NCBI GenBank assembly: GCA_042562855.1
Contig: JBHPNE010000001.1
Coordinates: forward strand, 35,046 to 99,045
Direction: 5' to 3'
Length of the DNA: 64,000 nt
DNA from: Elusimicrobiota bacterium
GTDB lineage: Bacteria > Elusimicrobiota > Endomicrobiia > Endomicrobiales > JAPLKN01
Under the pieces are notes generated by a model, which was not told the DNA's origin, ran no database searches, and was given only the letters and a program-made list of their open reading frames with translations. Positions 4,546 through 51,469 of the stretch are shown piece after piece (within the stretch, counting starts at the first letter, position 1; the number at the start of each line of letters is the position of its first letter). Both the position numbers and the translations under genes were made by a program.

Positions 4546-5418
4546 ATGAAGAAAATAAAATTAGGTTTTCCAAAAGGAAGCTTGCAGGAATCTACCTTAG
4601 AGCTTTTTAAGAAAGCCGGAATTAGAATAAATACGTCTACAAGGTCATATTTTCCGTCGTGTGATGATGATGAAATTGAAGTAATGATGGTTCGCTCACA
4701 GGAAATGGCTAAATATGTTGAAGACGGTGTTTTTGATGTTGGTCTAACCGGCTATGACTGGATATGCGAAACAGGCGCAAAAGTAAAAGAAGTCTGCGAA
4801 CTCATTTATGCAAAGTCGGGCTTTAGACCGGTACGCTGGGTGTTAGCTGTGCCCAATGGGTCTAAAATAAGATCAGTTAAAGATCTTAAAGGAAAGAGTA
4901 TTGCAACAGAGCTGGTAAACTATGTAAAAAAATATTTGAGGAGAAAAGGTGTTAAAGCAAATGTTGAGTTTTCCTGGGGAGCAACGGAGGTAAAGGCTGG
5001 AAGATTTGTTGATGCTATTGTCGAGCTTACAGAAACCGGGTCATCTTTACGGGCAAACAATTTAAGAATAGTTGATGAGATTTTGTCATCCACAACAAGA
5101 TTTATTGCAAATGAAGACGCGTTGAAGGATTCATGGAAAAGGAAAAAGATAGAAAGTATTGCAATACTTCTTAAAAGCGCATTGGCAGCTGAAGGTATGG
5201 TGGGTTTAAAAATGAATGTTTTATGCAAAAACTTAAATAAAATAAATAAACTTCTGCCGGCTTTGCGAAAACCCACACTTTCACAACTTAGTGATCCAAA
5301 GTGGGTTGCTTTAGAGGTTATAATGGAAGAAAAAGTGGTGAAAAAAATTCTTCCGGAACTCAAAAGAGCCGGCGCTGAAGGCATTATAGAGTATCCTCTT
5401 AATAAAATAATCTATTAA
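4546..5418 (+). CDS. hisG: ATP phosphoribosyltransferase (long form)
   Basis: 290 aa. N-terminus [20 protein letters not shown], with TGSSLRAN and a C-terminal regulatory-domain-like tail. Confidence 0.9.
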
Positions 5419-6897: not shown

Positions 6898-7263
6898 ATG
6901 GAAGCAAAAAATATGGATAGACATTTTGTGGGTTTAGTAATGATGCTTGCATCAGCTGCATGGCAGCAGATGGGTAAAATAGCAAATCCTATGACAGGAA
7001 AAGTAGACAGAAATATGCCTCAGGTTCAAATGATGATAGAAACATTATCTATGCTTCAGAATAAAACCAAAGGCAATCTTTCTACAGATGAGCAGAAATC
7101 TCTGGAAAATGTAATCTCGGATTTGCAATTAAATTATGCTGATGAAGTAAAAAAAACAGACAAGCCCGCGGATAGTGCTCCATCTGCTGAAACCGGTAAA
7201 GTGGAAGAAAAGAAAGAAGATAGCAAAGACGAAAAAGAAGAGAAGAACAAACCCATAAATTAA
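6898..7263 (+). CDS. DUF1844 domain protein
   Basis: AGGAG RBS. The core FVGLVMMLASAAWQQMGKIANPMTGK ... LSMLQNKTKGNLS matches the DUF1844 pattern. The C-terminal tail is K/E-rich. Confidence 0.7.
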   Translation: MEAKNMDRHFVGLVMMLASAAWQQMGKIANPMTGKVDRNMPQVQMMIETLSMLQNKTKGNLSTDEQKSLENVISDLQLNYADEVKKTDKPADSAPSAETGKVEEKKEDSKDEKEEKNKPIN

Positions 7264-7266
7264 TGA

Positions 7267-7475
7267 TTGCCCGGTGGTGCCAGCCTGAGGCTGGTGCGCC
7301 TTTGGTGCATAATTGACCTTAAGGGATCTTTTTAATGTTTTTAGAAAAAATAGAAGCTATTTTTTTATTAGTTGCCCGGTGGTGCCAGCCTGAGGCTGGT
7401 GCGCCTTTGGCGCATAATTGACCTTATACGGTCTTTTTAATGTTTTTAGAAAAAATAGAAGCTATTTTTTATTAG
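7267..7475 (+). repeat. Tandem repeat of two units (7267-7371 and 7372-7475). Each begins with the first 13 nt of the adjacent tRNA-Gln and carries two GC-rich hairpins
   Basis: The units are near-identical by eye. Each starts TTGCCCGGTGGTG. This is followed by CCAGCC-TGA-GGCTGG and TGCGCC-TTT-GG(T/C)GCA, then an AT-rich tail containing TTGACC. A third copy of the 13-mer is the real tRNA 5' end. Confidence 0.85.
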
Positions 7476-7476
7476 T

Positions 7477-7549
7477 TGCCCGGTGGTGTAATTGGTAACA
7501 CGCCTGCCTCTGGAGCAGGAGTCTCCTGGTTCGAGCCCAGGCCGGGCAG
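7477..7549 (+). tRNA. tRNA-Gln (anticodon CUG)
   Basis: Hand-folded cloverleaf:
- acceptor TGCCCGG/CCGGGCA (U1:A72)
- D arm GTGT-AATTGGTA-ACAC
- anticodon arm CCTGC-CTCTGGA-GCAGG
- 5-nt variable loop
- T arm CCTGG-TTCGAGC-CCAGG
- discriminator G
CCA is not encoded. Confidence 0.9.
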
Positions 7550-7556
7550 GTTCTTT

Positions 7557-7690
7557 AAACGAAATTTGCTATTATATATCGCATAGTTTTTGTTTGGCTA
7601 TTATTTGAAGATTATTGGCTTGTTTAAAAGTTCTTTCTTGCGAATGATATATGCTAGTCCAATTCAAGGTTCAAAAATTGTCCAAGCCGG
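7557..7690. repeat. Repeat R1, about 134 bp, paralogous to R2 at 9588-9718. It ends in a degenerate copy of the tRNA-Gln 3' end
   Basis: About 75-80% identity to 9588-9718 by eye alignment. R1 ends GTCCAAGCCGG where R2 ends GCCCAGGCCGG. Confidence 0.75.
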
Positions 7691-7908: not shown

Positions 7909-9393
7909 ATGAGCGAAGTTAAACATTATGTGACTAGTGCGGAAGACAGGATCCCTATTTCGCAGAAAATTTTTTACGGACTGGGAATGTTTACCAATAA
8001 TTTAGTTCCTGCAGCAATGGGAATCATGGCGGTGGTGCTTAATCTTGGTTTGGGAATGAATCCTGCCTTGGTTGGCTATATCATGTCATTTCCCCGGATC
8101 GTAGATGCGTTTACGGACCCGGCTATGGGGTATATCTCAGACAATACTAAATCGCGTTTTGGCCGGCGTAAACCGTATATCTTTTTCGGCGCTATCTTGC
8201 TTGGTATTACATTTGCCCTAATGTGGCGGGTCGGGCAGGGACACACCCAAATGTTTTACTTTTGGTTTTTTCTGCTTGGTTTTAATATTTTATTTCTTTG
8301 GAATACTCTTTTTGCAACGCCTTTTACTGCTTTAGGGTATGAAATGACACCTGATTATAATGAAAGAACCAGTGTTATGGCATGGGCTAACTGGTTGGGG
8401 CAGATTCCATGGCTCTTAACTCCCTGGTTCTGGTGGTTAATGGCAAATGAAAATTATTTCGATAATCCTGTAACAGGTGCGCAGACCATTGCACTATGGG
8501 TAGGATTTTCTGTTGTTGTATTAGGAATAATGCCGGCTATTTTCTCTCGCGAGCGATTCCTGAATGTAGCTGAAAATGAAATTAAAAAAGACAAACCGGG
8601 ACTAGGTGCGCATATCATTGATTTCTTAAAAGGATTTGTAGTTACCATGAAAAATGCTGCATTTTTAAAAATAATAGGCGCAACTTTTTTTGTTTTCAAC
8701 GGTTTTATGATAATATCCGGTTTTGCGATGTATATTTTTATTTACTATACATTTGGCGGTGATACAGTGTTGGGGGGTAAATATAACGGCTTATACGGTA
8801 CGACTGCAGCTCTTTCTACGGTGTTTATTGTTATTCCAATCGTGACCCGCCTTTCGAAAGCAATAGGCAAGAAAAGCGCTTTTATTGTTTCAACCTCGAT
8901 TTCTATTATAGGTTTTATTATTAAGTGGTGGTGTTTCAATCCTAAATATTCATCGCTTGTTGTGGTTAATCTGCCTGTTATCGGTGAAGTGCAGCTATTA
9001 ATTCTTTTACCGGGCATTTTGATTTCTTTTGGTATAGGAAGCGTATTTATGCTTATGGGTGCGATGATGGGCGACACCTGTGATCTTGACGAATTGGACA
9101 GCGGCAAACGTCGGGAAGGTATGTATGGTGCAATTTACTGGTGGGTATTAAAACTTGGCATGTCTGTGGCATTTGCAGTTTCAGGGAATGTTCTTAATGC
9201 CACCGGATTTGATGTTGCATTGGGGGCAAATCAGACGGCAGAGACATTGTTTAGGCTTAGATTGTTTGATGTATTTCTCCCGATTTTAACTACACTTTTG
9301 GCGATTGCTGCTATTGCGACTTATCCACTAAATGAAGCAAAGGCGCATGAAATCAGGGCAGAGTTAGAAAAACGCCGCGGCAAGACCGTTTAA
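7909..9393 (+). CDS. MFS transporter, glycoside-pentoside-hexuronide (GPH/MelB-like) family
   Basis: 12 predicted TM segments. The GPH-type motif DAFTDPAMGYISDNTKSRFGRRKPY follows TM2. GGAGGGAG RBS. Confidence 0.85.
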   Translation: MSEVKHYVTSAEDRIPISQKIFYGLGMFTNNLVPAAMGIMAVVLNLGLGMNPALVGYIMSFPRIVDAFTDPAMGYISDNTKSRFGRRKPYIFFGAILLGITFALMWRVGQGHTQMFYFWFFLLGFNILFLWNTLFATPFTALGYEMTPDYNERTSVMAWANWLGQIPWLLTPWFWWLMANENYFDNPVTGAQTIALWVGFSVVVLGIMPAIFSRERFLNVAENEIKKDKPGLGAHIIDFLKGFVVTMKNAAFLKIIGATFFVFNGFMIISGFAMYIFIYYTFGGDTVLGGKYNGLYGTTAALSTVFIVIPIVTRLSKAIGKKSAFIVSTSISIIGFIIKWWCFNPKYSSLVVVNLPVIGEVQLLILLPGILISFGIGSVFMLMGAMMGDTCDLDELDSGKRREGMYGAIYWWVLKLGMSVAFAVSGNVLNATGFDVALGANQTAETLFRLRLFDVFLPILTTLLAIAAIATYPLNEAKAHEIRAELEKRRGKTV

Positions 9394-9587: not shown

Positions 9588-9725
9588 AAAGCGAAATTTG
9601 CTAACATATTATGCAGTTTGTTTGGTTATTAATAGAAGATTATTGATTTGTTTAAAAATGCTCTCTGACGAAGGATATAGGCTAACCCAATTCAAGTTTC
9701 TAAAATCGCCCAGGCCGGGCAGGTT
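9588..9725. repeat. Repeat R2 plus an exact 18-bp copy of the tRNA-Gln 3' end (9708-9725 = 7535-7552)
   Basis: GCCCAGGCCGGGCAGGTT is present at both positions. The preceding ~120 bp align to R1. Confidence 0.8.
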
Positions 9726-9790
9726 AATTCAAGAATATTTTTTTACTTTATACTTCCTTGCGTTTAATAAAATTTAGGGAGGCAGCTAAA

Positions 9791-37662: not shown

Positions 37663-37900
37663 ACCGATTGAGAGGGGCACTAAGCCTAAGACGGAAAAGT
37701 AGAATCTGCCTGTAAAATCAAATCAATTTGACTTTAACCTATCTTAACCAATTTAAACCTATTTGAACCTCATATGGACACTTTTTGGACACCCCAGCCG
37801 TCGTCCTGTTTTAACATCCTTATAGTCATACCCCATAAGAATATGGGAGTTTCTTACCCTACCATGCTGTTTACTATTTCGGAACTTTTGCCAATTGGAG

Positions 37901-37929
37901 TTGACAAAAAATATTGTTTATGATAGACT
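37901..37929 (+). promoter_or_regulatory. Sigma70-type promoter inside module A
   Basis: Perfect -35 TTGACA (37901-37906), 17-nt spacer, TAGACT (37924-37929). The CCAATTGG palindrome ends 2 bp upstream of the -35. Confidence 0.5.
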
Positions 37930-37939
37930 TCTAACTAGA

Positions 37940-37984
37940 AGGACAAAGAGGTCCTCAAATCGCTGACGATTTGGGGACTTTTTT
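37940..37984 (+). terminator. Leader terminator with a competing upstream hairpin (attenuator candidate), module A
   Basis: The terminator is GTCCTCAAATCG-CTGA-CGATTTGGGGAC (12-bp stem, one G-U pair) followed by TTTTTT. The alternative hairpin AGGAC-AAAGAG-GTCCT uses the first 5 nt of the terminator stem. Confidence 0.6.
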
Positions 37985-38175
37985 ATTGTAAGTCTTGGCA
38001 AAGAAGCTTAGAAAGTTTTAAGACATGGAAGTCTTTGGTTCTAAAGTAAATTTAGAGCTGAGGGCTTTTTTTATTGGTCTTAAACACCAACGGTGGTAGC
38101 AAAGTATTTTAAAATTTTAAAGGAGAATGTCTCCCAAGGGACAAATCTCATCAAAAACACTCAAAGGAGATTTAG

Positions 38176-38904
38176 ATGAAAAAAAGAATTATGACATTAG
38201 TATTGATGTTAGTTTTTACAACAAGTCAGTTTGTTTATGCAAGTCCTTTGTTTTCCGGTTCTGAGGTGTCGGTTTCTGGGACATTGGACTATTTCTCTTC
38301 TTACATGTGGAGAGGTCAGACATTGGATACAGATCTGGTAGTGCAGCCGGGTTTTACAGTAGGTTGTAAAGATTTTAGTTTTGGATTTTGGAGCAGTATG
38401 CCGGTTTCCGACAAAGATTCTTCCGGTGCATCAAATGAAGTAGATATTACTGTTTCATACAGTAGGGATTTTGGAAAAGTCGGTATTTCACTCGGATATG
38501 TTTCCTATGAATTTCCTTCTACAGTTTTTTCCGGAACGGATGAGGTGTTTGCAGGATTTTCCTTAAATGAACTTCCCATATCTTTCGGAGTCACTTATTA
38601 TAATGACTACGATGACGCTGACGGATTAAAAGGTAGTTATACAGTAGTAGATTTGGGAAAAGATATTGGCAAGATTACAGAACTTCCAATAAGCGTGTCT
38701 TTGAGCATGGGCACGTATAGCGATTACGGAACATTCATGAACGGATCTGTAATTACAGTTGGATTAGGTTCGGAAGTAGAAATTTCCGAAAAAGTAACAA
38801 TGTCTCCATCGATCTATTATGTGTACACGTCAGGAGATTTATCAGAAGATTCTATCGGTAATCAGAAAGGTGGAGTATATGGCGGATTTAGTTTGGGATT
38901 CTAA
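38176..38904 (+). CDS. TorF/Gcw_chp-like outer membrane porin (family often found upstream of amtB)
   Basis: Signal peptide. SSYMWRGQTLD motif and beta-strand periodicity. The C-terminus ends in Phe (GFSLGF). Confidence 0.65.
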   Translation: MKKRIMTLVLMLVFTTSQFVYASPLFSGSEVSVSGTLDYFSSYMWRGQTLDTDLVVQPGFTVGCKDFSFGFWSSMPVSDKDSSGASNEVDITVSYSRDFGKVGISLGYVSYEFPSTVFSGTDEVFAGFSLNELPISFGVTYYNDYDDADGLKGSYTVVDLGKDIGKITELPISVSLSMGTYSDYGTFMNGSVITVGLGSEVEISEKVTMSPSIYYVYTSGDLSEDSIGNQKGGVYGGFSLGF

Positions 38905-40158: not shown

Positions 40159-40503
40159 ATGAAACTAATAATTGCAATAATTCAACCGTATAAGTTAGAA
40201 GAAGTTAAAAAGGAGCTTTATGCGAACGACATAAATCTTATTACTGTTACTGAAGTCCTTGGACACGGCAGACAAAAAGGTGTTACAGAAATTTATAGGG
40301 GCGTTAAGGAAACAGGTAATTTATTAAGAAAAGTGCGTTTAGATATAGCCGTTAACGATGAATATGTTGAGAAAGCGGTGTATTCTATTAGAAAAGGAGC
40401 AAAAACAGGTGAAAAGTTTGGCGATGGGAAAATATTCGTTCTCGACCTTAAGGAATGCATAAGAATAGGTTCGGGTGATACAGGTAAGAGAGCTATAGGT
40501 TAA
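40159..40503 (+). CDS. glnK: P-II nitrogen regulatory protein (GlnK type, amtB-linked)
   Basis: The start was moved to the ATG at 40159, which has an AAGGAGG RBS. The T-loop region is GHGRQKG. The B-loop-like segment is [11 protein letters not shown]. 114 aa. Confidence 0.9.
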
Positions 40504-40656
40504 CCAATCTCAACCTATTAGGATATAATATGGACACTTTTTGGACACCCCAGCCGTCGTCCTGTTTTAACATCCTTATAGTCATACCCCATAAGAATAT
40601 GGGAGTTTCTTACCCTACCATGCTGTTTACTATTTCGGAACTTTTGCCAATTGGAG

Positions 40657-40685
40657 TTGACAAAAAATATTGTTTATGATAAGCT
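40657..40685 (+). promoter_or_regulatory. Sigma70-type promoter inside module B
   Basis: TTGACA (40657-40662), 17-nt spacer, TAAGCT (40680-40685). Confidence 0.5.
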
Positions 40686-40695
40686 ATTAATTAGA

Positions 40696-40740
40696 AGGAC
40701 AAAGAGGTCCTCAAATCGCTGACGATTTGGGGACTTTTTT
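40696..40740 (+). terminator. Leader terminator with a competing upstream hairpin (attenuator candidate), module B
   Basis: Sequence identical to 37940-37984. Confidence 0.6.
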
Positions 40741-40876
40741 ATTTGTATTCTAAGCGAAGAAGCTTAAAAGGATCTAAGACATAGACGTCTTCGGTTTCTA
40801 AGATAGTTTTAGAAATTTTGAGGGCGTTTTTTCTTTGTGTGCTGGAAAGATAAGCAGAATAATTGGAGGGAAATTA

Positions 40877-42472
40877 ATGACAAAATATATTTTTGTAACT
40901 GGTGGTGTGGTATCTTCATTAGGAAAAGGAATTACTGCTGCTTCAATAGGCAGTCTATTTAAAAGTTGTGGATTAAGAATTAATATTATAAAGATTGATC
41001 CTTATCTGAATGTTGATCCAGGCACAATGAGTCCTTTCCAGCATGGCGAGGTATTTGTAACAGATGATGGAGCAGAAACAGATCTTGATTTAGGTTACTA
41101 TGAAAGGTTTCTTGATATAAACTTGTCGCAAGACAGTAATTTTACCAGCGGTAAAGTATATGAAACAATAATTTCAAGAGAAAGAGAAGGAGGTTATCTG
41201 GGAAATACTGTGCAGGTTATTCCTCATGTAACAAATGAAATAAAATCCAGAATAAAAAAAGCCTCAAGAGGCAACGATATTGTTATTGTTGAGATAGGAG
41301 GTACAACCGGCGATATAGAAGGCTTACCGTTTCTTGAAGCAATACGCCAAATGAGGCATGATGTAGGCCATGATAACGTGTGTTATGTCCATGTAACACT
41401 TGTTCCTTACATTAACGCTGCTCAGGAGATGAAAACAAAACCTACTCAACAGAGTGTTGCAAAACTCAGGGAAATAGGAATAGCTCCACACGTATTAGTA
41501 TGCAGGACAGAAAGGCGCATGACACCGGATATGAAGAAAAAAATAGCTTTGTTCTGCAATGTCCGTGAAGATGCAGTAATCGAGGAAAAAGATGTTGATA
41601 CGAGCATATATGAAGTTCCTGTTATGCTCAAAGATCAGGGTATGGATAAGTTGATAGTTGACATGCTTCATATTAATTGTAGAAAAAGTAATTCTAACAA
41701 TTGGAAAAAAGTTATTAAAAATATAAAGAGCTGCAAAAAAACAGTAAATATAGCGGTTGCCGGAAAATACACAGAATTAAAAGATTCATATAAGAGTATA
41801 TGGGAGGCTTTAACTCATGGTGCGTGGGCAAATAATGCTAAGATCAATATAAGTTATGTAGATGTGGAAAAAGATGATCTGAACGAAAAATTTTCAAAAG
41901 CTGATGGCATATTGGTTCCCGGAGGATTTGGGGACAGGGGTATTGAAGGAAAAATAAATGTTGTATGTTATGCAAGAGAGAATAAAATACCATTTTTCGG
42001 GATTTGCCTTGGGATGCAGTGTGTTGTAATTGAATTTGCAAGGAATGTATGCGGCTTAAAAAATGCAAATAGTACGGAGTTTAATGCTAAAACACCTTAT
42101 CCTGTTATTGATATAATGAAAGAACAAAAGAAAATATCAAACAAAGGCGGAACAATGAGGCTGGGTAAGTATCCATGCCAGTTAATAAAAGGCTCGCTGG
42201 CAAATAAAGCGTACAAAAAATCATTGATTTATGAGCGTCACAGGCACAGATATGAACTAAACAATAAGTTTAGAAAAAAACTTGAACAGTTCGGAATGGT
42301 CATTACCGGAAAATATGAAAATAAGAATCTGGCAGAGATAGTTGAACTAAAAAATCATCCATGGTTTATAGGAACTCAATTTCATCCTGAATTTAAATCA
42401 CGCCCGACAAGTCCACACCCACTTTTTAGTGATTTTATTAAATCGGCAATAGAAAATAAAAGTAGAAAATGA
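40877..42472 (+). CDS. pyrG: CTP synthase
   Basis: The start was moved to the ATG at 40877, which has a GGAGGG RBS. Motifs GGVVSSLGKGI, GICLGMQ and HRHRYE are present. Confidence 0.95.
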   Translation: MTKYIFVTGGVVSSLGKGITAASIGSLFKSCGLRINIIKIDPYLNVDPGTMSPFQHGEVFVTDDGAETDLDLGYYERFLDINLSQDSNFTSGKVYETIISREREGGYLGNTVQVIPHVTNEIKSRIKKASRGNDIVIVEIGGTTGDIEGLPFLEAIRQMRHDVGHDNVCYVHVTLVPYINAAQEMKTKPTQQSVAKLREIGIAPHVLVCRTERRMTPDMKKKIALFCNVREDAVIEEKDVDTSIYEVPVMLKDQGMDKLIVDMLHINCRKSNSNNWKKVIKNIKSCKKTVNIAVAGKYTELKDSYKSIWEALTHGAWANNAKINISYVDVEKDDLNEKFSKADGILVPGGFGDRGIEGKINVVCYARENKIPFFGICLGMQCVVIEFARNVCGLKNANSTEFNAKTPYPVIDIMKEQKKISNKGGTMRLGKYPCQLIKGSLANKAYKKSLIYERHRHRYELNNKFRKKLEQFGMVITGKYENKNLAEIVELKNHPWFIGTQFHPEFKSRPTSPHPLFSDFIKSAIENKSRK

Positions 42473-42512
42473 TAAAATAAAAATTATTAGCTACGTATAG
42501 GAAAATATTATT

Positions 42513-45179
42513 ATGGGAAAAGTTTATTCATTAATGAGTACCGGGCTTCCTGAGCTGGATAATGTAATTCAGAACGTAATGCCAGGCGATAATATTGTCT
42601 GGCAGATGGACTCTATTGAAGATTATATCCTTTTTGTACATCCATTCTTAAGCGATGCATACAAAAAAGGAAACAAGCTGATCTATTTCCGGTTTGCAGA
42701 GCACTCTTCATTGTTACCTGAAGGAGTTAACGCTGAAGTTTATACCCTTCACCCTGAAGATGGGTTTGAATCATTTATAGCAGAGATTTTTAATGTTATA
42801 GAAAAATATGGTACAGGTGTATTTTATGTTTTTGATTGTTTGTCAGAGCTTACAGTGGATTGGTATAGTGACCGAATGCTTGCTAATTTTTTTATGCTTA
42901 CCTGTCCCTATCTTTATGATTATGAAACTGTAACATATTTTGCTCTTCTAAGGAATCATCATACCTCGCAAACTATTAATGCCATACATAATACTGCTCA
43001 GGTGATTATAGATGTTTATCGTAATAAAAATGATTTGTTTTTGCAGCCACTCAAGGTTTATAAACGACATACTCCGACTATGTATATGCTTCATCACTGG
43101 AAAGATAGAGAGCTTAAACCTGAAACAAGTAGTACTATAATTTCAGAAATACTTGAAGAGGTATCACATCCCTGGCTTGATTTCTCTGTAAGCAGGCGGG
43201 ATATGTGGATCAGAGTATTTTCAAAAGCACGTGAGATTCATGAAACCATCTCTTCTTCAAAGTCACCTCAAGAAGGGTTGGATGAAGATATTGTCAAAAG
43301 CAAAAAGTTTGATAAGGAATATGAAAAGTATTTTCAACGTCTATTAAGAATGGCTGTAACAAGAGATGAACGAGTTATAAAATTGGCAGAAAAATATTTT
43401 GAACTTTCTGACCTTATAGATATTGGCAAACATATGATAGGAACCGGGCTCATAGGAGGTAAGACAGTAGGAATGCTTTTAGCCCGCGCTATTTTAAAAC
43501 GTTCCAATAAAAAGTACTGGCAAGAAAAATTGGAGCCGCATGACAGTTTTTATATTGGCTCAGATGTTTTTTATACATATTTAGTCCAGAGCGGCTGCTG
43601 GTGGCCACGGTGGAAACAGAGGCATGAAGACAATGTATTAGAAGGTGCTGAAGATGTGCGGCAAAGAATGCTTTCCGGTGATTTTTCGAGCGATATCAAA
43701 GATCAATTCGTGGAAATATTAAATTATTTTGGGCAGTCGCCAATTATTGTACGTTCCAGCAGTCTCTTAGAAGACGCATACGGAAACTCTTTTTCAGGAA
43801 AGTATGAGAGTGTGTTTTGTGCGAATCAGGGCACCCCGCAGGAACGGCTTGAGGGATTTATGAATGCTGTGCGCGCTGTTTATGCAAGCACTATGAACCG
43901 TGATGCATTGTTATATCGTGCTCAAAGAGGCCTTTTAGACCGTGATGAACAGATGGCACTTCTTGTTCAGCGGGTTTCAGGCTCTGTTTATAATGACACG
44001 TTCTTTCCTCAGATTGCAGGTGTAGGATTTTCATATAATCCGTTTGCGTGGAGCCAGGATATTGATCCTAAGGCCGGAGTGCTTCGTCTCGTCTTTGGAT
44101 TAGGGACAAGAGCAGTGAACCGCAGTGATGACGATTACACATGTATTGCAGCGCTAAACGAACCTAAGAAAAGGCCCTCAGCAAACATAGACGATGATAG
44201 AAAATATGCACAGAAAAAGATTGATATCTTAGACCTTAAGGCTAACCAGCTTGTATCAAGACACTTTGAGGATCTGGCAAAAAATATTTCCAAATTACAA
44301 CTTGATCTTTTTGCCATACGTGATAATGAGATGGAGAAAAGAGCCAAAGAAAGAAATATTCATGATATATTTTCATGGATCATTACATTTGACGGCCTTT
44401 TTTCTAATACAGAGTTTGCACAGGATATGCGTAGGATATTAAGAACAATTGAGGACGCTTATGAATATCCTGTTGATATTGAGTTTACATCCAATTTTTT
44501 AAGTAATGGACAATATAAGATTAATCTTTTGCAATGCCGCCCCTTTCAGGTAAAAAGAGGAACTTATATAGTAAGGGAACCTGGGAGGATACAGGAGAAG
44601 AATTTAATATTGAGAACAAAAGGCCCCATAATCGGCAATAGTGTGCAGATAGTAATTGACAGGTTGATTTATATTCTTCCTTCTATTTATGGACATATGT
44701 CCATGCCTGACCGCTATTCGATTGCACGGCTAATAGGAAAGTTGACTAATCTTGAAAATAAACAGGAGAAAAAAAACATTATGCTTATAGGGCCGGGCAG
44801 ATGGGGAACTACAACTCCTTCGCTCGGTGTTCCCGTTGAGTTTGGCGAGATAAATAATGTTTCGGTTCTATGCGAGATTACAGAAATGCATGAAGGCCTT
44901 GTCCCGGATGTTTCGCTTGGAACCCATTTCTTCAATGACATTGTAGAGTTGGATATGCTTTATATGGCCATTCATCCTGCGGGAAGTGATAACTTTATAA
45001 ATAAAAAGTTTTTGGAGACAGCACATAATCAATTGGAAAAGCTTCTTCCGGGTGAATCTAAATGGTCTAATGCTGTACGTATTATAGATTTGTCACAGGA
45101 ACAGCAGAGTAGTTGTATTTATTTAAATGTAAATTCCCCGGAGCAAAAGGGCGTTTGTTATATAGGTAAAAAAGAATGA
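42513..45179 (+). CDS. PEP/pyruvate-binding (PPDK_N ATP-grasp) domain protein with a degenerate KaiC/RecA-like N-terminal domain
   Basis: The central region (IVRSSSLLEDAYGNSFSGKYESV ... PVDIEF ... LLQCRP) matches the PPDK_N pattern. The N-terminus (STGLPELDNVI...PGDNIVWQ ... VFYVFDCLSEL) resembles KaiC-type ATPases but has no Walker A. I see no phosphohistidine swivel motif. Its stop overlaps the gltB start (ATGA). Confidence 0.75.
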   Translation: MGKVYSLMSTGLPELDNVIQNVMPGDNIVWQMDSIEDYILFVHPFLSDAYKKGNKLIYFRFAEHSSLLPEGVNAEVYTLHPEDGFESFIAEIFNVIEKYGTGVFYVFDCLSELTVDWYSDRMLANFFMLTCPYLYDYETVTYFALLRNHHTSQTINAIHNTAQVIIDVYRNKNDLFLQPLKVYKRHTPTMYMLHHWKDRELKPETSSTIISEILEEVSHPWLDFSVSRRDMWIRVFSKAREIHETISSSKSPQEGLDEDIVKSKKFDKEYEKYFQRLLRMAVTRDERVIKLAEKYFELSDLIDIGKHMIGTGLIGGKTVGMLLARAILKRSNKKYWQEKLEPHDSFYIGSDVFYTYLVQSGCWWPRWKQRHEDNVLEGAEDVRQRMLSGDFSSDIKDQFVEILNYFGQSPIIVRSSSLLEDAYGNSFSGKYESVFCANQGTPQERLEGFMNAVRAVYASTMNRDALLYRAQRGLLDRDEQMALLVQRVSGSVYNDTFFPQIAGVGFSYNPFAWSQDIDPKAGVLRLVFGLGTRAVNRSDDDYTCIAALNEPKKRPSANIDDDRKYAQKKIDILDLKANQLVSRHFEDLAKNISKLQLDLFAIRDNEMEKRAKERNIHDIFSWIITFDGLFSNTEFAQDMRRILRTIEDAYEYPVDIEFTSNFLSNGQYKINLLQCRPFQVKRGTYIVREPGRIQEKNLILRTKGPIIGNSVQIVIDRLIYILPSIYGHMSMPDRYSIARLIGKLTNLENKQEKKNIMLIGPGRWGTTTPSLGVPVEFGEINNVSVLCEITEMHEGLVPDVSLGTHFFNDIVELDMLYMAIHPAGSDNFINKKFLETAHNQLEKLLPGESKWSNAVRIIDLSQEQQSSCIYLNVNSPEQKGVCYIGKKE

Positions 45180-48100
45180 AGAATTTTGGATTATATGATA
45201 AATCATTTGAACATGACAGCTGTGGCGTAGGATTTGTTGTTGATATTAAAGGCAAAGCCTCGCATCAAATTATAAAAGACGGCGTTACCGTTTTAAAAAA
45301 TCTTGTGCACAGAGGAGCTATTGGAGGTGATTTGAAAACAGGTGACGGGGCTGGAATGCTTCTTCAGATACCACATCGTTTTTATTATGAGGAATGTGCT
45401 AAACTGGGATTTAACCTTCCTGATAAGGGTAACTACGGAGTAGGTTTTCTTTTTTTACCGCAGGATAAGAAAGTCCGAAATAATATAGAAAAAGAGGTAA
45501 CAAACATTATACAGCAGGAAGGGGGCAGTGTTATTGGCTGGCGTGATGTTCCTGTATGCTCGGATTGCCTTGGTGAAATAGCGAAAAGGACTATGCCGTT
45601 TATGAGACAGGTGTTTACAAATTTCCCCAATTTAATTGGCGACGAGCTGGAAAGAAAACTATATATTTCAAGAAAACGAATGGAAAAAGCCGCAATAAGC
45701 ATAAAACTGTCTATGGAAGAGTTTTATATTCCAAGTTTTTCATCAAGGACCATAGTTTATAAAGGCATGTTTGTTGCTCCTCAGTTTGAAAGTTTTTATC
45801 CTGACCTGGTAGAAAAAAGTTTTCAGAGCGCTTTTGCGCTTGTGCACCAACGATACAGCACAAATACATTTCCCTCATGGCCACTTGCACAACCGTTCCG
45901 CAATATTGCCCACAATGGTGAGATAAATACCTTGCGGGGAAATATTAATAATATGAAAGTACGTGAAGCAACGTTATCATCACCACTGTTTGGCAAGGGT
46001 ATAAAAAAATTATTTCCCATTATTATGGAAGGGGGCAGCGATTCTGCCGTATTCGATAATACTTATGAATTGCTGGTTTCATCCGGGAGATCTGTTGAAC
46101 ATGCTATGATGATGATGATTCCTGAACCTTTTGGAACCAAATATCATATTAGTACTGATAAACGTGGTTTTTATGAATTTCACGCTGCATTTATGGAACC
46201 TTGGGACGGCCCTGCTGCAATAGCTTATACCGATGGGACAAAAATAGGTGCTGTTTTGGATAGGAACGGCTTAAGGCCAGCACGATACGTAATTACTAAA
46301 AGCGGGAAAGTTGTGCTTGCATCTGAAGTGGGGGTTCTTGATATAGCCCCGGAAGATGTTTTAGAAAAAGGACGGCTTGCACCTGGAAAGATGATTTTAA
46401 TAGACACTGCTATAGGAAGAGTTAAAAAGGATAATGAGATAAAGGCGTCCGTATCAAGGCAGAAATTATATAGGCGGTGGCTGGAAGAAAACCGTATTGA
46501 ATTAAAGGGCTTGTTTCAGCCAGCCGGGCCTGTTAAAGTTGATGAAAAATCGCTCTTGATAAAACAAAAAGCTTTTGGTTATACACTGGAAGATCTGAAC
46601 ATGATTATAAAACCAATGGCTGAAAATGCCCAAGAGCCAATAGGTTCAATGGGTGATGATGAGGCTTTAAGTGTTTTATCGGATCGTCCCCAGCGGTTAT
46701 ACAGGTACTTTAAACAGCTTTTTGCCCAGGTTACAAATCCGCCTATTGACCCGTATAAGGAAAACCTTGTTATGTCGTTAATGAGTTTTATTGGGAAAGA
46801 AAGGAACTTGTTAGAAGAAAGCCCGGATCAGTGCCGCCAGCTTAAACTTTCACATCCAATTTTAACCAACGAAGATATGGACAAACTAAGAAATGTGGAT
46901 ATTCGTGATTTTAAGTCAACTGTTGTTCCGATGACATATAATTTAAGTTCTTCAGAAGATACTAAAAGAAATTTTGAAAATGCCATTAAATTTTTGTGCC
47001 GGCAAGTTGAAAAGAAGGTTGATGAAGGCTATTCAATTGTTATTATCAGCGACAGGAGAATTGATGAAAATAATGTTCCGATACCAGCGCTTCTTGCAAC
47101 ATCGGCTGTAAACAATTATCTAGTTAAAAAAGGAAAACGGCATTTAATAGGGCTTGTGGTTGAAACAGGAGAAACAAAAGAGGTTATGGACTTTGCAACT
47201 TTGATTGGTTATGGTGCCAGTGCCATAAATCCCTATCTGGCTTTCGAAATCCTGGCGTATTTAAAGGTAAATGGCCACCTTAGCCAGGACATGAAACTTG
47301 AAACAGCTATTGATAACTACATTATAGCAGTTAAGAAAGGTTTACTAAAAATCATGTCAAAAATGGGAGTGTCAACAATTCGCAGTTACAAAGGCGCTCA
47401 TTTATTCGAAGCCGTTGGATTAAATTCTGAGTTTGTGAACAAGTACTTTCCTGAAACCCCGTCACGTATAGAAGGTGTGGGCATTGATATTATAGCTCAA
47501 GAGGCTCTATTAAAACACAGGAATGCTTTCACGGGAAATAATATGGTTGATTCAGGGGGACACTACCATTTCAGGCGTTCTTCTGAAAAACATTTACTAA
47601 GGCCTGAAGTTATTGGGCTACTTCAAAAAGCAGTCAGGGAAGGAAATTATGATTTATACAAAAAATATTCCAGGCTAATTAATGAGGATGAAGAATGCCT
47701 GTGTACATTAAGAGGCCTTTTCAGGTTTAAAAAAGACAAGTCTGTACCTGTTGAAGAAGTTGAGCCTGTTGATACTATTGTAAAGCGTTTTGTTACATCT
47801 GCCATGTCATTTGGAAGTATCAGTAAAGAGGCACATGAAACTCTGGCAGTAGCTATGAACCGCCTAGGCGCACAAAGCAATTCCGGTGAAGGCGGCGAGG
47901 ATGAGGAACGTTATAAGCCTTTGCCAAATGGCGATTCCATGATGAGTAAGATCAAACAAGTTGCTTCAGGCAGGTTTGGGGTAAATAGCAATTATCTTGT
48001 TCATTCAAAGGAACTTCAAATAAAGATGGCTCAAGGCGCTAAGCCAGGTGAAGGCGGCCAGCTGCCAGGGCATAAGGTTGATAAGATAATTGCAAAGGTC

Positions 48101-49720
48101 AGGCATTCTACGCCTGGCGTTGTACTTATATCACCCCCTCCTCATCATGATATTTACTCTATTGAAGATCTGTCCCAGCTGATATTTGATTTGAAAAATG
48201 CAAGCCCAGACGCCCGGGTTTCTGTAAAACTTGTAAGCGAGGCAGGAGTAGGGACTGTTGCAGCGGGCGTTGCAAAAGGCAAGGCAGATATGGTTCTTAT
48301 AAGCGGGGGTGACGGCGGGACAGGAGCATCACCTTGGTCTTCGATAAAACATGCTGGAATGCCGTGGGAAATCGGATTGTCTGAAACACAGCAGACACTG
48401 GTACTTAATAATTTAAGGGATCGTATACGCGTGCAGGTTGACGGGCAGTTGAGAACAGGAAGGGATGTGGTTATTGCTGCTCTTCTTGGCGCTGAAGAGT
48501 ATGGTTTTGGAACAATTGCTCTTGTTACTCTTGGATGCGTGATGATGCGCAAATGCCATTTGAATACCTGTCCTGTAGGTGTTGCTACACAAGATGAAAG
48601 ACTGCGCAAACGATTTGCCGGTAAACCGGAATATGTCATCAACTTTATGAGATTTGTGGCACAGGAAGTAAGGGAAATTATGGCTGAATTAGGCTTTAGA
48701 ACAATTGATGAAATGGTAGGACAGGTTGACAGGCTTAAGGCAGATAAAACAATTAAGCATTGGAAAGCAAAAGGCATTGATTTTTCAAAACTGTTTATGA
48801 AACCAGCCTTGCCTGAAGGCTCTTCATATCATTGTGTTACAACACAGAAATATGATTTCTCGAAATCCATTGGTGAGTCCCCGTATATAGACGGGGAGTT
48901 AATAAAGAACGCAAAAAATGCAATAGAAAATAAACAGCCTGTTAGTTTATTTGCTCAAATAAGAAACTCCAATAGAACTGTTGGAACACGATTAAGTTCC
49001 GAAGTTTCAAAACTTTATGGTTCTGCCGGTTTGCCCGAAAACACAATTAAATGCAAGCTTACCGGTGAAGCAGGCCAAAGTTTTGGAGCATTTCTATCTA
49101 AAGGTATCACATTTGAGCTTGAAGGCGATGCTAATGATTATCTAGGCAAGGGTTTATCAGGCGGACGTATTATACTATATCCAAACAGGAAATCTACGTT
49201 TCGTGCACAGAATAACATTATAACTGGCAATGTAAATTTATTTGGTGCAACTGAAGGAGAGGTTTTTATACATGGGATGGCAGGTGAACGTTTTGCAGTA
49301 CGTAATAGCGGAGCTATTGCTGTCGTTGAAGGAGTGGGTGACCATGGGTGTGAATATATGACGGGCGGGCGAGTGGTTGTACTTGGCCGTACCGGTGTGA
49401 ATTTTGCTGCAGGGATGAGCGGTGGAATTGCGTATGTTTTAGACGAAAACCAGCTTTTTGATACCAAGTGCAACCTGGATATGGTGGACTTAGAGCCTGT
49501 AACCGAAAAAGAAGATATGGATTTTCTATATAATTTAATAAAACGGCACGTAGAATTTACCGAGAGCCAATATGCTGTAAGGATAATAAAAGACTGGGAT
49601 GAGATGCTACCAAAGTTTGTAAAAGTATTCCCGATTGATTATAAGAAGGTTATTGAACGCCAGAAAACAGGCCTTTTAAAAGAAGCCGAAGTTGAGTCTG
49701 TAACAGAGGAAGTTTATTAA
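45176..49720 (+). CDS. gltB: Glutamate synthase large subunit
   Basis: 1514 aa. The N-terminal amidotransferase Cys lies in SCGVGFV. The central, FMN-binding and C-terminal GXGXG beta-helix domains are recognisable. Confidence 0.95.
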   Translation: MKNFGLYDKSFEHDSCGVGFVVDIKGKASHQIIKDGVTVLKNLVHRGAIGGDLKTGDGAGMLLQIPHRFYYEECAKLGFNLPDKGNYGVGFLFLPQDKKVRNNIEKEVTNIIQQEGGSVIGWRDVPVCSDCLGEIAKRTMPFMRQVFTNFPNLIGDELERKLYISRKRMEKAAISIKLSMEEFYIPSFSSRTIVYKGMFVAPQFESFYPDLVEKSFQSAFALVHQRYSTNTFPSWPLAQPFRNIAHNGEINTLRGNINNMKVREATLSSPLFGKGIKKLFPIIMEGGSDSAVFDNTYELLVSSGRSVEHAMMMMIPEPFGTKYHISTDKRGFYEFHAAFMEPWDGPAAIAYTDGTKIGAVLDRNGLRPARYVITKSGKVVLASEVGVLDIAPEDVLEKGRLAPGKMILIDTAIGRVKKDNEIKASVSRQKLYRRWLEENRIELKGLFQPAGPVKVDEKSLLIKQKAFGYTLEDLNMIIKPMAENAQEPIGSMGDDEALSVLSDRPQRLYRYFKQLFAQVTNPPIDPYKENLVMSLMSFIGKERNLLEESPDQCRQLKLSHPILTNEDMDKLRNVDIRDFKSTVVPMTYNLSSSEDTKRNFENAIKFLCRQVEKKVDEGYSIVIISDRRIDENNVPIPALLATSAVNNYLVKKGKRHLIGLVVETGETKEVMDFATLIGYGASAINPYLAFEILAYLKVNGHLSQDMKLETAIDNYIIAVKKGLLKIMSKMGVSTIRSYKGAHLFEAVGLNSEFVNKYFPETPSRIEGVGIDIIAQEALLKHRNAFTGNNMVDSGGHYHFRRSSEKHLLRPEVIGLLQKAVREGNYDLYKKYSRLINEDEECLCTLRGLFRFKKDKSVPVEEVEPVDTIVKRFVTSAMSFGSISKEAHETLAVAMNRLGAQSNSGEGGEDEERYKPLPNGDSMMSKIKQVASGRFGVNSNYLVHSKELQIKMAQGAKPGEGGQLPGHKVDKIIAKVRHSTPGVVLISPPPHHDIYSIEDLSQLIFDLKNASPDARVSVKLVSEAGVGTVAAGVAKGKADMVLISGGDGGTGASPWSSIKHAGMPWEIGLSETQQTLVLNNLRDRIRVQVDGQLRTGRDVVIAALLGAEEYGFGTIALVTLGCVMMRKCHLNTCPVGVATQDERLRKRFAGKPEYVINFMRFVAQEVREIMAELGFRTIDEMVGQVDRLKADKTIKHWKAKGIDFSKLFMKPALPEGSSYHCVTTQKYDFSKSIGESPYIDGELIKNAKNAIENKQPVSLFAQIRNSNRTVGTRLSSEVSKLYGSAGLPENTIKCKLTGEAGQSFGAFLSKGITFELEGDANDYLGKGLSGGRIILYPNRKSTFRAQNNIITGNVNLFGATEGEVFIHGMAGERFAVRNSGAIAVVEGVGDHGCEYMTGGRVVVLGRTGVNFAAGMSGGIAYVLDENQLFDTKCNLDMVDLEPVTEKEDMDFLYNLIKRHVEFTESQYAVRIIKDWDEMLPKFVKVFPIDYKKVIERQKTGLLKEAEVESVTEEVY

Positions 49721-49736
49721 GGAGAATATTTAAAAG

Positions 49737-51182
49737 ATGGCAAAACCTACAGGTTTTCTAGAAATCAAACGAAAAGATGCTAAATATCGTCCTGTTAAGG
49801 AACGAATAAAAGACTATAAGAATGTTGTAGAGTATTTATCATATGACGATGTACGCGAACAGGCATCGCGTTGCATGGATTGCGGCGTGCCTTTCTGTCA
49901 TTGTATTGGATGCTCCGTTGAAAATCTCATACCTGAGTGGAATGATTTGGTATACAAGGGAAAATGGAAGGAAGCATTGGAAAGACTGGAAAACACTAAC
50001 TCTTTGCCTGAAATAACAGGCAGAGTGTGTCCTGCAACTTGTGAAGCCTCGTGTACGTTATCTATAAACGATAACCCTGTTGCAATAAAACAGATTGAGC
50101 TGGCAATTATTGAATACGGATTTAAACAAGGCTGGATTAAACCAAAAATACCTGGTGCAAAAATAGATAAGAAGGTGGCAATTATAGGTTCAGGGCCGGC
50201 TGGCCTTTCTGCTGCTATAGTTTTAAGGGAGTTGGGGTACAAAGTTACTGTGTTTGAAAAATCAAAAGCTATTGGTGGTATATTAAGGTATGGAATTCCG
50301 GATTTTAAACTGGAAAAATGGGTGATTGACCGAAGGATTGATATAATGAAAAAATCAGGGATTAAGTTTGAAACAGGTGTTAACATAGGTGAGGATATGT
50401 CTGAGCATTACCTTAGAAGGTCTTTTGACACAATTCTTTTAACCATTGGCGCTGGGCAACCCAGGGATTTAACAGTACCTGGCCGCCAGTTACAAGGCAT
50501 TCATTTTGCAATGGATTATTTAATGTGTTCTAATAAATACGTATCAGGCGATATAAAAAAAGATGTCCCCATAAATGCCAAAGGAAAAAATGTTCTTGTT
50601 ATAGGTGCTGGGGATACTGGTTCAGATTGTATAGGAACTGCTAACAGGCAAGGTGCAAAAAAGGTTTATCAATTTGAAATTTTACAAAAGCCTGAAGAAT
50701 GGAAAGAATCCTATAACCCAAACTGGCCTGACTGGCCTTTGATACTAAGAACAACGTCTTCTCATAAAGAAGGAGTAGAGAGAGACTGGTCTATTACTAC
50801 AAAAAAATTTATGGGTAAAAATAATCAAGTTCAAGAAATACATTGCTCTAGGGTTGAGTGGAAGTCGTCAGAAAAAGGTTTAAGACCTCAAATGGTTGAA
50901 GCGCAAGGAAGCGATTTTACCATTAAGGTTGACCTGGTTATACTGGCAACAGGTTTTGTGCATGTTGAACACAATAAATTGCTTAAGAAATTGAAGATTG
51001 AGTATGACCAGTGTGGCAATATCAAAACTGATATAAACTACACTACAAATGTTGAAGGTATATTTGCTGCTGGTGATTCTAATGTGGGTGCTTCACTAGT
51101 AGTTCGTGCGATTTATGACGGCCAGCAGGTGGCCATGAAGATGCACGGATTTCTAAATAGTCTAAATAGCAGCAAAAAATAG
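49737..51182 (+). CDS. gltD: Glutamate synthase small subunit (NADPH)
   Basis: The Fe-S Cys clusters are CMDCGVPFC and CPATCEASC. The dinucleotide folds are VAIIGSGPAGLSAA and VLVIGAGDTGSDC. Confidence 0.9.
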   Translation: MAKPTGFLEIKRKDAKYRPVKERIKDYKNVVEYLSYDDVREQASRCMDCGVPFCHCIGCSVENLIPEWNDLVYKGKWKEALERLENTNSLPEITGRVCPATCEASCTLSINDNPVAIKQIELAIIEYGFKQGWIKPKIPGAKIDKKVAIIGSGPAGLSAAIVLRELGYKVTVFEKSKAIGGILRYGIPDFKLEKWVIDRRIDIMKKSGIKFETGVNIGEDMSEHYLRRSFDTILLTIGAGQPRDLTVPGRQLQGIHFAMDYLMCSNKYVSGDIKKDVPINAKGKNVLVIGAGDTGSDCIGTANRQGAKKVYQFEILQKPEEWKESYNPNWPDWPLILRTTSSHKEGVERDWSITTKKFMGKNNQVQEIHCSRVEWKSSEKGLRPQMVEAQGSDFTIKVDLVILATGFVHVEHNKLLKKLKIEYDQCGNIKTDINYTTNVEGIFAAGDSNVGASLVVRAIYDGQQVAMKMHGFLNSLNSSKK

Positions 51183-51203: not shown

Positions 51204-51320
51204 ATGAAAAGTGTTATAAAATACGAAGATGAAGTGAAAATATTGCGTGATATTACTCAAAGTATAAGTTGTACTTTAAATCTTGAGGAAGTTTTAAAAA
51301 AGATAGTAGTGGCGGTTTGA
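51204..51320 (+). pseudogene. 38-codon ORF resembling the start of a GAF-domain regulator (possible gene relic)
   Basis: MKSVIKYEDEVKILRDITQSISCTLNLEEVLKKIVVAV* resembles the first helix/strand of GAF domains and then stops. AGAGG lies 8 nt upstream. Confidence 0.25.
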
Positions 51321-51332
51321 TAAAGCAAAAAC

Positions 51333-51361
51333 TTGACAAGTTGGCAAATATTTGAGAAAAT
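51333..51361 (+). promoter_or_regulatory. Sigma70-type promoter candidate for the GSIII gene
   Basis: TTGACA (51333-51338), 17-nt spacer, GAAAAT (51356-51361). Confidence 0.35.
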
Positions 51362-51436
51362 GTCTTCGGAAAGACAAAGGTGTTTTTCCATGTATGACTG
51401 TGAGAGTCAAAATATTTTGTGAAAAGTAATCGCGAT

Positions 51437-51469
51437 GAAGCGTTCCGATAAAGGGCGTTTCTTTTTTTT
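51437..51469 (+). terminator. Terminator-like hairpin plus U-run inside the GSIII leader
   Basis: GAAGCG / CGTTTC stem (one G-U pair) with a 13-nt loop, followed by 8 T. It ends 33 nt upstream of the ATG at 51502. Confidence 0.35.

Follow-up and report, generated by a model that had tools for sequence, protein, structure and literature searches.

Tandem predicted ANTAR-type attenuators, the first with a single promoter-adjacent hexaloop, in the duplicated leaders of two nitrogen-assimilation operons of an Elusimicrobiota bacterium

The RNA targets of ANTAR antiterminator proteins consist of two hairpins, P1 and P2, each with a hexaloop that has A as its first and G as its fourth nucleotide (A1/G4); a linker of 5-12 nt separates the two, and P2 overlaps a terminator (Ramesh et al. 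2012, PMC3369931). Examples are EutV acting on eut of Enterococcus faecalis, NasR on nasF and AmiR on amiE; targets of this kind are over-represented in front of genes for P-II, ammonium transporters, glutamate synthase and glutamine synthetase, with nitrogen regulons predicted in Desulfotomaculum and Pelobacter, and the GAF-GAF-ANTAR class was uncharacterised as of that study (PMC3369931). Later work showed that an ANTAR dimer contacts only one hexaloop at any moment, and it revised the minimal target to one hexaloop; single sites were expected for the most part beyond the co-transcriptional time window (Walshe et al. 2022, PMC8934654). Here we analyse a stretch of 64,000 nt (hereafter the window) from contig JBHPNE010000001.1 of an Elusimicrobiota bacterium (source-genome locus tags ACFL58_). 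With a probability of roughly 0.7, the segment 37901-37987 comprises a promoter and the first of two tandem, protein-dependent ANTAR-type attenuators in the leader of a porin-amtB-glnK operon, an arrangement duplicated before a pyrG-PPDK_N-gltB-gltD operon.

Both copies of the module (37901-37987 and 40657-40743) contain the promoter TTGACA-17-TA(G/A)(A/G)CT followed by hairpins, as the original prediction, made from the letters of the DNA, had described. The constitutive-looking sigma-70-type promoter of copy 1 (37901-37929, + strand, like the leader elements, the identical block and the regulator remnant described below) combines TTGACA at 37901-37906, a 17-nt spacer and TAGACT at 37924-37929 within the extended -10 element TGaTAGACT; in copy 2 (40657-40685), TTGACA at 40657-40662 is followed, after a spacer of the same length, by TAAGCT at 40680-40685 (TGaTAAGCT). 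Transcription is predicted to start at about 37936 and 40692, respectively. Hairpin A, the predicted antiterminator, begins 10 nt past the -10 box and 2-5 nt past the predicted start site. In copy 1 (37940-37955) its 5-bp stem is formed by AGGAC (37940-37944) and GUCCU (37951-37955) around the hexaloop AAAGAG (37945-37950), in which A1 is nucleotide 37945 and G4 nucleotide 37948. The same GUCCU makes up the 5' base of terminator T1 (37951-37984), a 12-bp stem of GUCCUCAAAUCG (37951-37962) and CGAUUUGGGGAC (37967-37978) with a CUGA loop, followed by U6 (37979-37984). Hairpin A (40696-40711) and T1 with its U-run (40707-40740) are identical in copy 2, where together they span 40696-40740.

Sequence and fold agree on the 12-bp terminator stem and U6 claimed originally, and energies computed with ViennaRNA bear out the further claim that pairing of AGGAC with GUCCU excludes the terminator and leaves a 7-bp hairpin. 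Hairpin A alone is worth -6.2 kcal/mol, hairpin A with the leftover 7-bp tip -13.0 kcal/mol, and the 12-bp T1 fold -17.8 kcal/mol, or about -23 kcal/mol with an A/U extension; the A-rich 5' flank of T1 pairs with the U-run. Hairpin A and T1 are mutually exclusive on these energies, with T1 as the default fold, and co-transcriptional folding yields hairpin A first, displaced only once GGGAC emerges. Against shuffled sequences, the fold of the 151-nt leader has z = -5.7 in copy 1 and -5.5 in copy 2. The proposed logic of a transcription attenuator is thus supported, a short 5'-proximal hairpin competing with the base of a terminator. Also in line with the original prediction, which had judged the element too small for a riboswitch and an RNA-binding protein the likely effector, a search of Rfam 15 gave no family at gathering score anywhere in the leaders, and only chance-level matches at E <= 10.

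In both copies, some 80 nt further downstream, there is a second terminator, preceded by two more hexaloop hairpins. In copy 1, hairpin B (37997-38008; GGC, loop AAAGAA, GCU) serves as P1 and hairpin C (38020-38035; AAGAC, loop AUGGAA, GUCUU), located 11 nt past B, as P2 of this second unit; GUCUU (38031-38035) belongs both to the 3' arm of C and to the 5' base of terminator T2 (38027-38072), which has a 19-pair stem and occupies 38027-38069 plus U7. The second unit of copy 2 (40752-40832) comprises B (AAGC-GAAGAA-GCUU, 40752-40765), C (AAGAC-AUAGAC-GUCUU, 40776-40791) and T2 with its U-run (40785-40832; 40785-40827 plus U6). Hairpins A, B and C all present a 6-nt loop on a short stem, and the A1/G4 pattern is seen in A (AAAGAG), in B (AAAGAA; copy 2, GAAGAA, with G at position 1) and in C (AUGGAA/AUAGAC), whose loop differs between the copies at positions 3 and 6, with A1 and G4 kept. 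Beyond T1 the identity of the two copies falls to only about 80%, yet the hairpins are still there, with A1 and G4. Overlap with a terminator is found in A/T1, through GUCCU, and in C/T2, through GUCUU, while the tandem P1/P2 arrangement (about 5-12 nt apart) is absent from A/T1 and present in the second unit.

Copy 1 is followed by genes for a TIGR02001-type outer-membrane protein (the porin, start at 38176), AmtB and P-II (glnK). In the operon downstream of copy 2, pyrG (CTP synthase; annotated start 40877, the ATG implied by NCBI's 531-aa CTP synthase) comes first, then a gene for an 888-aa protein with a PPDK_N domain, then gltB and gltD, which encode the large and the small subunit of glutamate synthase; a gene for glutamine synthetase III (GSIII) follows.

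On sequence grounds we file A/T1 as a probable single-hexaloop variant of the ANTAR antiterminator and B-C/T2 as a canonical member. The element is not a new class of switch; what is new is the variant, a promoter-adjacent first unit with a single hexaloop. It shares with the ANTAR systems of Ramesh et al. the A1/G4 hexaloop, a 3' arm that doubles as the 5' base of the terminator, termination as the default, several attenuators per regulon and the same classic nitrogen target genes; the second unit of the window, with B, an 11-nt linker, C and T2, reproduces their dual-hairpin layout. It differs in that the flagged unit has one hexaloop and no P1, that loop position 1 in this clade may also be G, C or U, G4-A5 being nearly invariant, and that the regulator probably belongs to the GAF-GAF-ANTAR proteins and neither to the response regulators nor to the NIT-ANTAR proteins, its cluster-linked gene being deleted here. 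Like the single-hexaloop sites of Walshe et al., hairpin A offers one hexaloop with G4 as a minimal target, but it stands directly before a terminator, in a co-transcriptional setting.

More distant parallels exist. In Geobacter, nitrogen-fixation and assimilation genes are reportedly under REC-ANTAR control through a GnfK/GnfR cascade, attributed to Ueki and Lovley in 2010; there, as here, ANTAR-dependent post-initiation nitrogen control would be layered on a cascade of transcription or sigma factors, whereas the sensor belongs to a two-component system instead of being a GAF domain, and the phylum is another. The pyrG gene of Bacillus subtilis is controlled by attenuation through CTP-sensitive reiterative transcription. 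As in copy 2, the leader before the CTP synthase gene is very short and pits the 5' end of the transcript against a terminator; in the window, however, the start lacks a G-run, the module also precedes amtB-glnK and the competitor is a preformed hexaloop hairpin. Control of the PyrR type or by reiterative transcription was rejected for the window because the identical module stands before amtB-glnK as well and no G-run is present at the start site.

The GSIII gene of the window has a leader of the same design (51333-51469): TTGACA-17-GAAAAT, the hairpin GGAAAGAC-AAAGGU-GUUUUUCC (51368-51389), and the hairpin CGC-GAUGAA-GCG (51431-51442), which overlaps a terminator (51437-51461) followed by U8. 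Every competing hairpin in these leaders has an NNNGAN hexaloop, in most cases with A1 and G4. A generic search of the window for dual A..G.. hexaloops was non-specific (27 matches on the + strand), and a census based on terminator overlap was used in its place. It covered 120 terminator-like hairpins from the window and nine loci, and recorded hexaloop hairpins of at least 3 bp that have G4-A5 and overlap the 5' arm of the terminator. Such a hairpin was present at 16 of 17 nitrogen-leader terminators, compared with 1 of 103 others (Fisher p ~1e-17); among all overlapping hairpins, G4-A5 was found in 16 of 23 leader loops and in 1 of 49 control loops. In the window, GAC-NNNGAN-GUC occurs four times, always within the two duplicated leaders. 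The second attenuator, the A1/G4 signature, the logic of the GSIII leader and an identical block of 152 nt described below had not figured in the original prediction.

Two further models were abandoned. A covariance model of the dual hairpin was given up when MAFFT aligned the GGAC-type hairpin regardless of whether it occupied the P1 or the P2 position, and a model of one 16-nt hairpin would have contributed nothing beyond the census and the count of GAC-NNNGAN-GUC. A nested model, in which the tip of T1 would act as a second hexaloop (CUGA/GUGU, or GCUGAC/GGUGUC with the closing pair open), was dropped: UGA was found in the tip loops of 7 of 17 leader terminators and 22 of 103 others, an enrichment that is not significant (p = 0.076). 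One more ANTAR-like hexaloop on a terminator tip is seen in the leader of a GAF-sigma54-activator gene in L024 (2290-2410), where a TTGACA promoter is followed by the terminator CCCG..CGGG-U7 tipped by the hairpin UCUC-AUUGAA-GAGA, in a pattern that overall has no statistical support.

Orthologous leaders in relatives retain the arrangement. L001 is a locus from a metagenomic relative with a 59% identical porin, and blastn placed its A/T1 unit at 5006-5051, with 85% identity. The L001 leader (4972-5250), in which the upstream gene ends 12 nt before TTGACA, reads TTGACA-16-TATAAT, 8 nt, AGGAC-AAAGAA-GUCCU; its terminator T1' (GUCCUCGGAUCG-GUGU-CGAUUCGGGGAU-U6) shows one compensatory change from A-U to G-C and two one-sided changes. 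About 100 nt beyond T1' come B' (GGAGC-GCCGAA-GCUUC), C' (AAGAC-CACGAA-GUCUU) and T2'. A GSIII leader in L020, recovered in a metagenome hairpin scan, has TTGACA-16-TATACT upstream and a canonical pair made of P1 (AAGGC-AAAGGU-GUCUU), a 12-nt linker and P2 (GGAC-AAAGAG-GUCC) with a terminator. Hairpin A keeps its sequence in L001 and L020, in contrast to the drifting T1 stem: in an alignment of T1 from the window, L001 and L020 (RNAalifold), 17 pairs are kept and 3 are changed on both sides. In T2 (copy 1, copy 2 and L001) the stem base is kept, the tip is replaced and 3 pairs are likewise changed on both sides. Covariation across homologous leaders, proposed originally as a check, is therefore found for T1 and T2, three pairs each, and not for the invariant hairpin A. 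Hairpins of the same kind precede nitrogen genes in L003, L007, L018, L021, L023 and L024, as in GGAC-AAGGUA-GUCC...GGC-AAAGAU-GCC, AAGAC-AUUGAU-GUCUU and AGAAC-GUAGAC-GUUCU. Single units also make up about half of those in relatives, as judged by eye, for example in the nadE leaders of L021 and L023.

Regarding the effector, the hexaloop motif, together with the neighbouring genes in relatives, points to a GAF-ANTAR antiterminator and away from the candidates named originally, namely P-II, the GS/GOGAT enzymes and the 'PEP-binding' PPDK_N protein. GAF(-GAF)-ANTAR genes are located in the homologous nitrogen clusters of L018, L021 and L023, and in relatives the leader of the GAF-ANTAR gene itself carries the hexaloop motif. 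The GAF-GAF-ANTAR family, about 405 aa at full length, is 64-74% identical across many phyla and, among the matches listed, is often encoded on contigs with pyrG. The window retains a remnant of such a gene, a 38-codon open reading frame (ORF) at 51204-51320 that encodes MKSVIKYEDEVKILRDITQSISCTLNLEEVLKKIVVAV and corresponds to the first 35-38 codons of a GAF-GAF-ANTAR gene, followed by two stop codons; it is 66-71% identical to residues 1-35 of P0139/P0144 (tblastn). The remnant lies directly after gltD and immediately upstream of the GSIII promoter, and an intact gene occupies the equivalent place in L018. The cluster-linked regulator gene has thus apparently been lost from the window by deletion. 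Since only this remnant is present, the effector would have to act in trans, and from the position of pyrG and the assimilation genes behind two strong terminators we infer that this genome encodes an ANTAR protein elsewhere. In relatives, GAF-ANTAR is accompanied by either a small GerE/sigma70_r4-like protein or a short one that resembles sigma-54.

In the mechanism we propose, the nascent RNA would by default fold into T1 and any read-through RNA into T2, so that transcription would end at both. Under an inducing nitrogen signal, a dimeric ANTAR antiterminator, presumably of the GAF-GAF-ANTAR type found in relatives, would bind the hexaloop of hairpin A (AAAGAG, A1/G4). By analogy with GAF sensors such as NifA, the GAF domains may sense 2-oxoglutarate or glutamine as the signal. 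The bound protein would keep GUCCU in hairpin A and block the base of the terminator, leaving a 7-bp tip 6 nt from the U-tract, and the same event at B and C would defeat T2. Two attenuators in series would multiply the off-state and sharpen the response, and a tight off-state would be expected from two serial gates. The first gate, which has no P1, would need more of the active regulator or may pre-load the regulator for B-C. Both the position of the start site and the action of an ANTAR protein in this genome are predicted here from sequence.

Several findings weigh against this interpretation. Unit A/T1 has no canonical upstream P1, and the -10 box ends only 8-10 nt before hairpin A in the window and L001, hence transcripts from this promoter would carry none; in reporter assays with EutV, both hairpins and the 5-12-nt linker were required (PMC3369931). 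The stem of hairpin A is invariant in its three orthologues and offers no covariation. No intact ANTAR domain is encoded within the 64-kb window, the cluster-linked copy being truncated. The leader set that gave the census count of 16 in 17 was picked by inspection and includes both identical copies. Finally, the promoter pattern matches the window four times against 2.7 expected, the motif alone not being statistically unusual; what supports the predicted promoter is that orthologous leaders have it in the same position, with TTGACA, a 16/17-nt spacer and TATAAT/TATACT directly upstream of the leaders of L001, L020, L021 and L023.

The two leaders are parts of a direct repeat of 300 nt (37744-38043 versus 40500-40799) with 90% identity, in which the copies are 100% identical over 37773-37924 and 37937-37988. 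Between 40657-40743 and 37901-37987 there are five differences only, clustered in the segment of the -10 box and the start site. The first identical block, of 152 nt (37773-37924, also 40529-40680), ends inside the promoter spacer and has flanks that are 75-80% identical; its edges coincide with those of a 49-codon ORF (37774-37923). Such a mosaic would be explained by gene conversion or by recent copying of a 216-nt cassette, consisting of the promoter and A/T1, into older leaders. Tentatively, and with clearly less confidence than in the attenuator reading as a whole, we suggest that A/T1 is a natural and conserved P1-less attenuator at the very start of the transcript, which may act as a high-threshold gate or as a loading site for B-C about 45 nt downstream, responds to a paralogue encoded in trans and resides on the recently copied 216-nt cassette.

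The 152-nt block contains the direct repeat TGGACAC-N4-TGGACAC, has no match in Rfam and is absent from the L001 orthologue. Its origin as a gene fragment was rejected for want of tblastx similarity to the neighbouring genes of relatives. The 49-codon ORF was likewise discarded as a small protein or leader peptide, having no credible homologues among 1.84 billion representative proteins (four weak matches were to repetitive giant proteins), no Shine-Dalgarno sequence in copy 1 and no counterpart in L001.

We regard it as unlikely that T1 is simply a constitutive, bidirectional-looking terminator or insulator for the upstream glucan synthase gene and glnK, with hairpin A incidental and only B-C/T2 regulated. 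T1 lies 290 nt past the 2919-aa ORF and 200 nt past glnK and could terminate both; its A-rich 5' flank pairs with the U-run, and the unit lacks a P1 hairpin. However, in the window and in L001 alike, a consensus promoter separates T1 from the upstream gene, which places T1 inside the downstream transcript. Hairpin A also bears the signature of the regulon (a purine-rich arm ending in C, the NNNGAN loop and a G-pyrimidine arm), which the census found at 16 of 17 leader terminators and 1 of 103 others, and its sequence, not that of the T1 stem, is what L001 and L020 preserve.

It is somewhat more doubtful still that hairpin A is the P2 of a canonical dual hairpin on a transcript that starts further upstream, for example from the partly conserved element TTAACCAAT...TATAAT at 37744-37775 / 40500-40531. 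The corresponding P1 would be the weak hairpin GUUU-AUGAU-AGAC (37915-37927), which lies over the -10 box, 12 nt before hairpin A. This linker fits the 5-12-nt rule, and the difference of GA to AG between the copies (37925-37926) preserves pairing with UU; the putative loop, however, is a pentaloop, not a hexaloop, and the weak P1 is not conserved in L001, whose upstream gene ends 12 nt before TTGACA. As for the start itself, the upstream promoter-like site of copy 2 scores 10/12 and the amtB leaders of relatives use a GTTACCAAA-N14/15-CTTGTAT promoter, of which each window copy fits only half.

Control of the attenuator by some factor other than an ANTAR protein, whether a different RNA-binding protein, a trans-acting RNA or a ribosome translating the 49-codon ORF, appears improbable. 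The destruction of the cluster-linked ANTAR gene would favour it, as would the match between the boundaries of the ORF and of the identical block and the end of the ORF 16 nt before hairpin A, which brings the stop codon within a ribosome footprint of it. Yet the L001 orthologue keeps the promoter, A and T1 and lacks the ORF, for which the protein search and the missing Shine-Dalgarno sequence of copy 1 speak no better; no Rfam family applies, and the loop signature is specifically that of ANTAR targets.

Least probable by our estimate is the alternative offered in the original prediction, a free-standing RNA of about 45-50 nt acting as an anti-Shine-Dalgarno RNA or a regulator decoy: a terminated RNA of this size must accumulate whenever the promoter fires, given the default T1 fold, and the small RNAs EutX/Rli55 provide a precedent for sequestering an ANTAR protein (PMC8934654), but CCUC (37953-37956) is paired in both folds and hence unavailable as anti-Shine-Dalgarno, the hexaloop hairpin is not formed in the terminated fold, and the transcript runs on, with no intervening promoter, into the second canonical attenuator and then the operon, which always lie downstream on the same strand in an arrangement kept in L001.

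The ANTAR-type interpretation, if correct, would extend post-initiation nitrogen control by these proteins to the Elusimicrobiota, an uncultured and poorly studied phylum, with GAF-GAF-ANTAR proteins, a class uncharacterised as of 2012 and highly conserved across several phyla, as the probable master regulator. The P1-less unit found in two genomes would provide a natural test of the single-hexaloop proposal of 2022 and of the role of P1 in co-transcriptional timing.

Other features of these clusters concern their promoters. A promoter-like motif, GTT(A/T)AC(C/A)AAA-N14/15-(A)CTTGTAT, precedes amtB, porin and GATase leaders in relatives (L001 5836, 8741 and 11154; L018 8171; L021 13759; L023 13784; L003 ~2880), and the small GerE/sigma70_r4-like protein of these clusters could be a candidate sigma factor for it. 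At 37744-37775 and 40500-40531 of the window, either copy fits no more than half of this motif (TTAACCAAT ... CCTCATAT / TATAATAT). Inspection of the window leaders by eye for sigma-54 promoters found only unsuitable GG/GC spacing. In L003 (3016-5729), L007 (2987-5679) and L024 (2418-5035), a gene for a GAF-sigma54-activator precedes the porin-amtB-glnK operon and is itself followed by one for a short protein of 363-386 aa with a Sigma54_DBD domain only. The element of L024 is a textbook TGGCACG-N4-TTGC, that of L003 and L007 is TTCGCA(C/T)GC(T/G)GATTGCA, with CG instead of the usual GG, and in all three loci these sigma-54-like elements are followed by ANTAR-type hairpins.

CTP synthase is encoded within the nitrogen regulon in the window (40877-51182), and relatives (L019 2500-12993; L021 1-9580) cluster its gene with those of many other glutamine amidotransferases (purF-like, guaA, carAB, hisH/F, purQ/L, nadE and queC) beside the GAF-ANTAR gene, which suggests coordinated control or rationing of glutamine-consuming enzymes. 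In L017, the closest pyrG relative (86% identity), no more than a decayed T1-like sequence is left: over 8255-8360 / 8430-8560 the promoter TTGACAAAA...ATTGTT is kept, T1 is reduced to UCAAAUCG...GAUUUU...GAUUUUUU, and a GGACAAAGAGG fragment adjoins what by eye is an apparent piece of a carB pseudogene. The L017 leader appears to be eroding.

The 888-aa PPDK_N-domain protein (42513-45179) has a homologue encoded directly upstream of the ANTAR-type GSIII leader of L020 (3643-3029, - strand), with 56% identity over the C-terminal 200 aa, and thus stands beside GS/GOGAT genes at both loci. When genome contigs were scanned with this protein, the only matches came from distant taxa (Bacteroidales, Clostridia and others), in which the leader was absent.

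Elsewhere in the window, a 105-nt tandem duplication with 92% identity (7260-7469) is located immediately upstream of a tRNA-Gln gene (7476-7550). A 33-nt repeat (7535-7567 and 9708-9740), starting in the 3' end of tRNA-Gln, brackets an MFS transporter gene (7909-9393), an arrangement reminiscent of a small integrated element with its duplicated att site.

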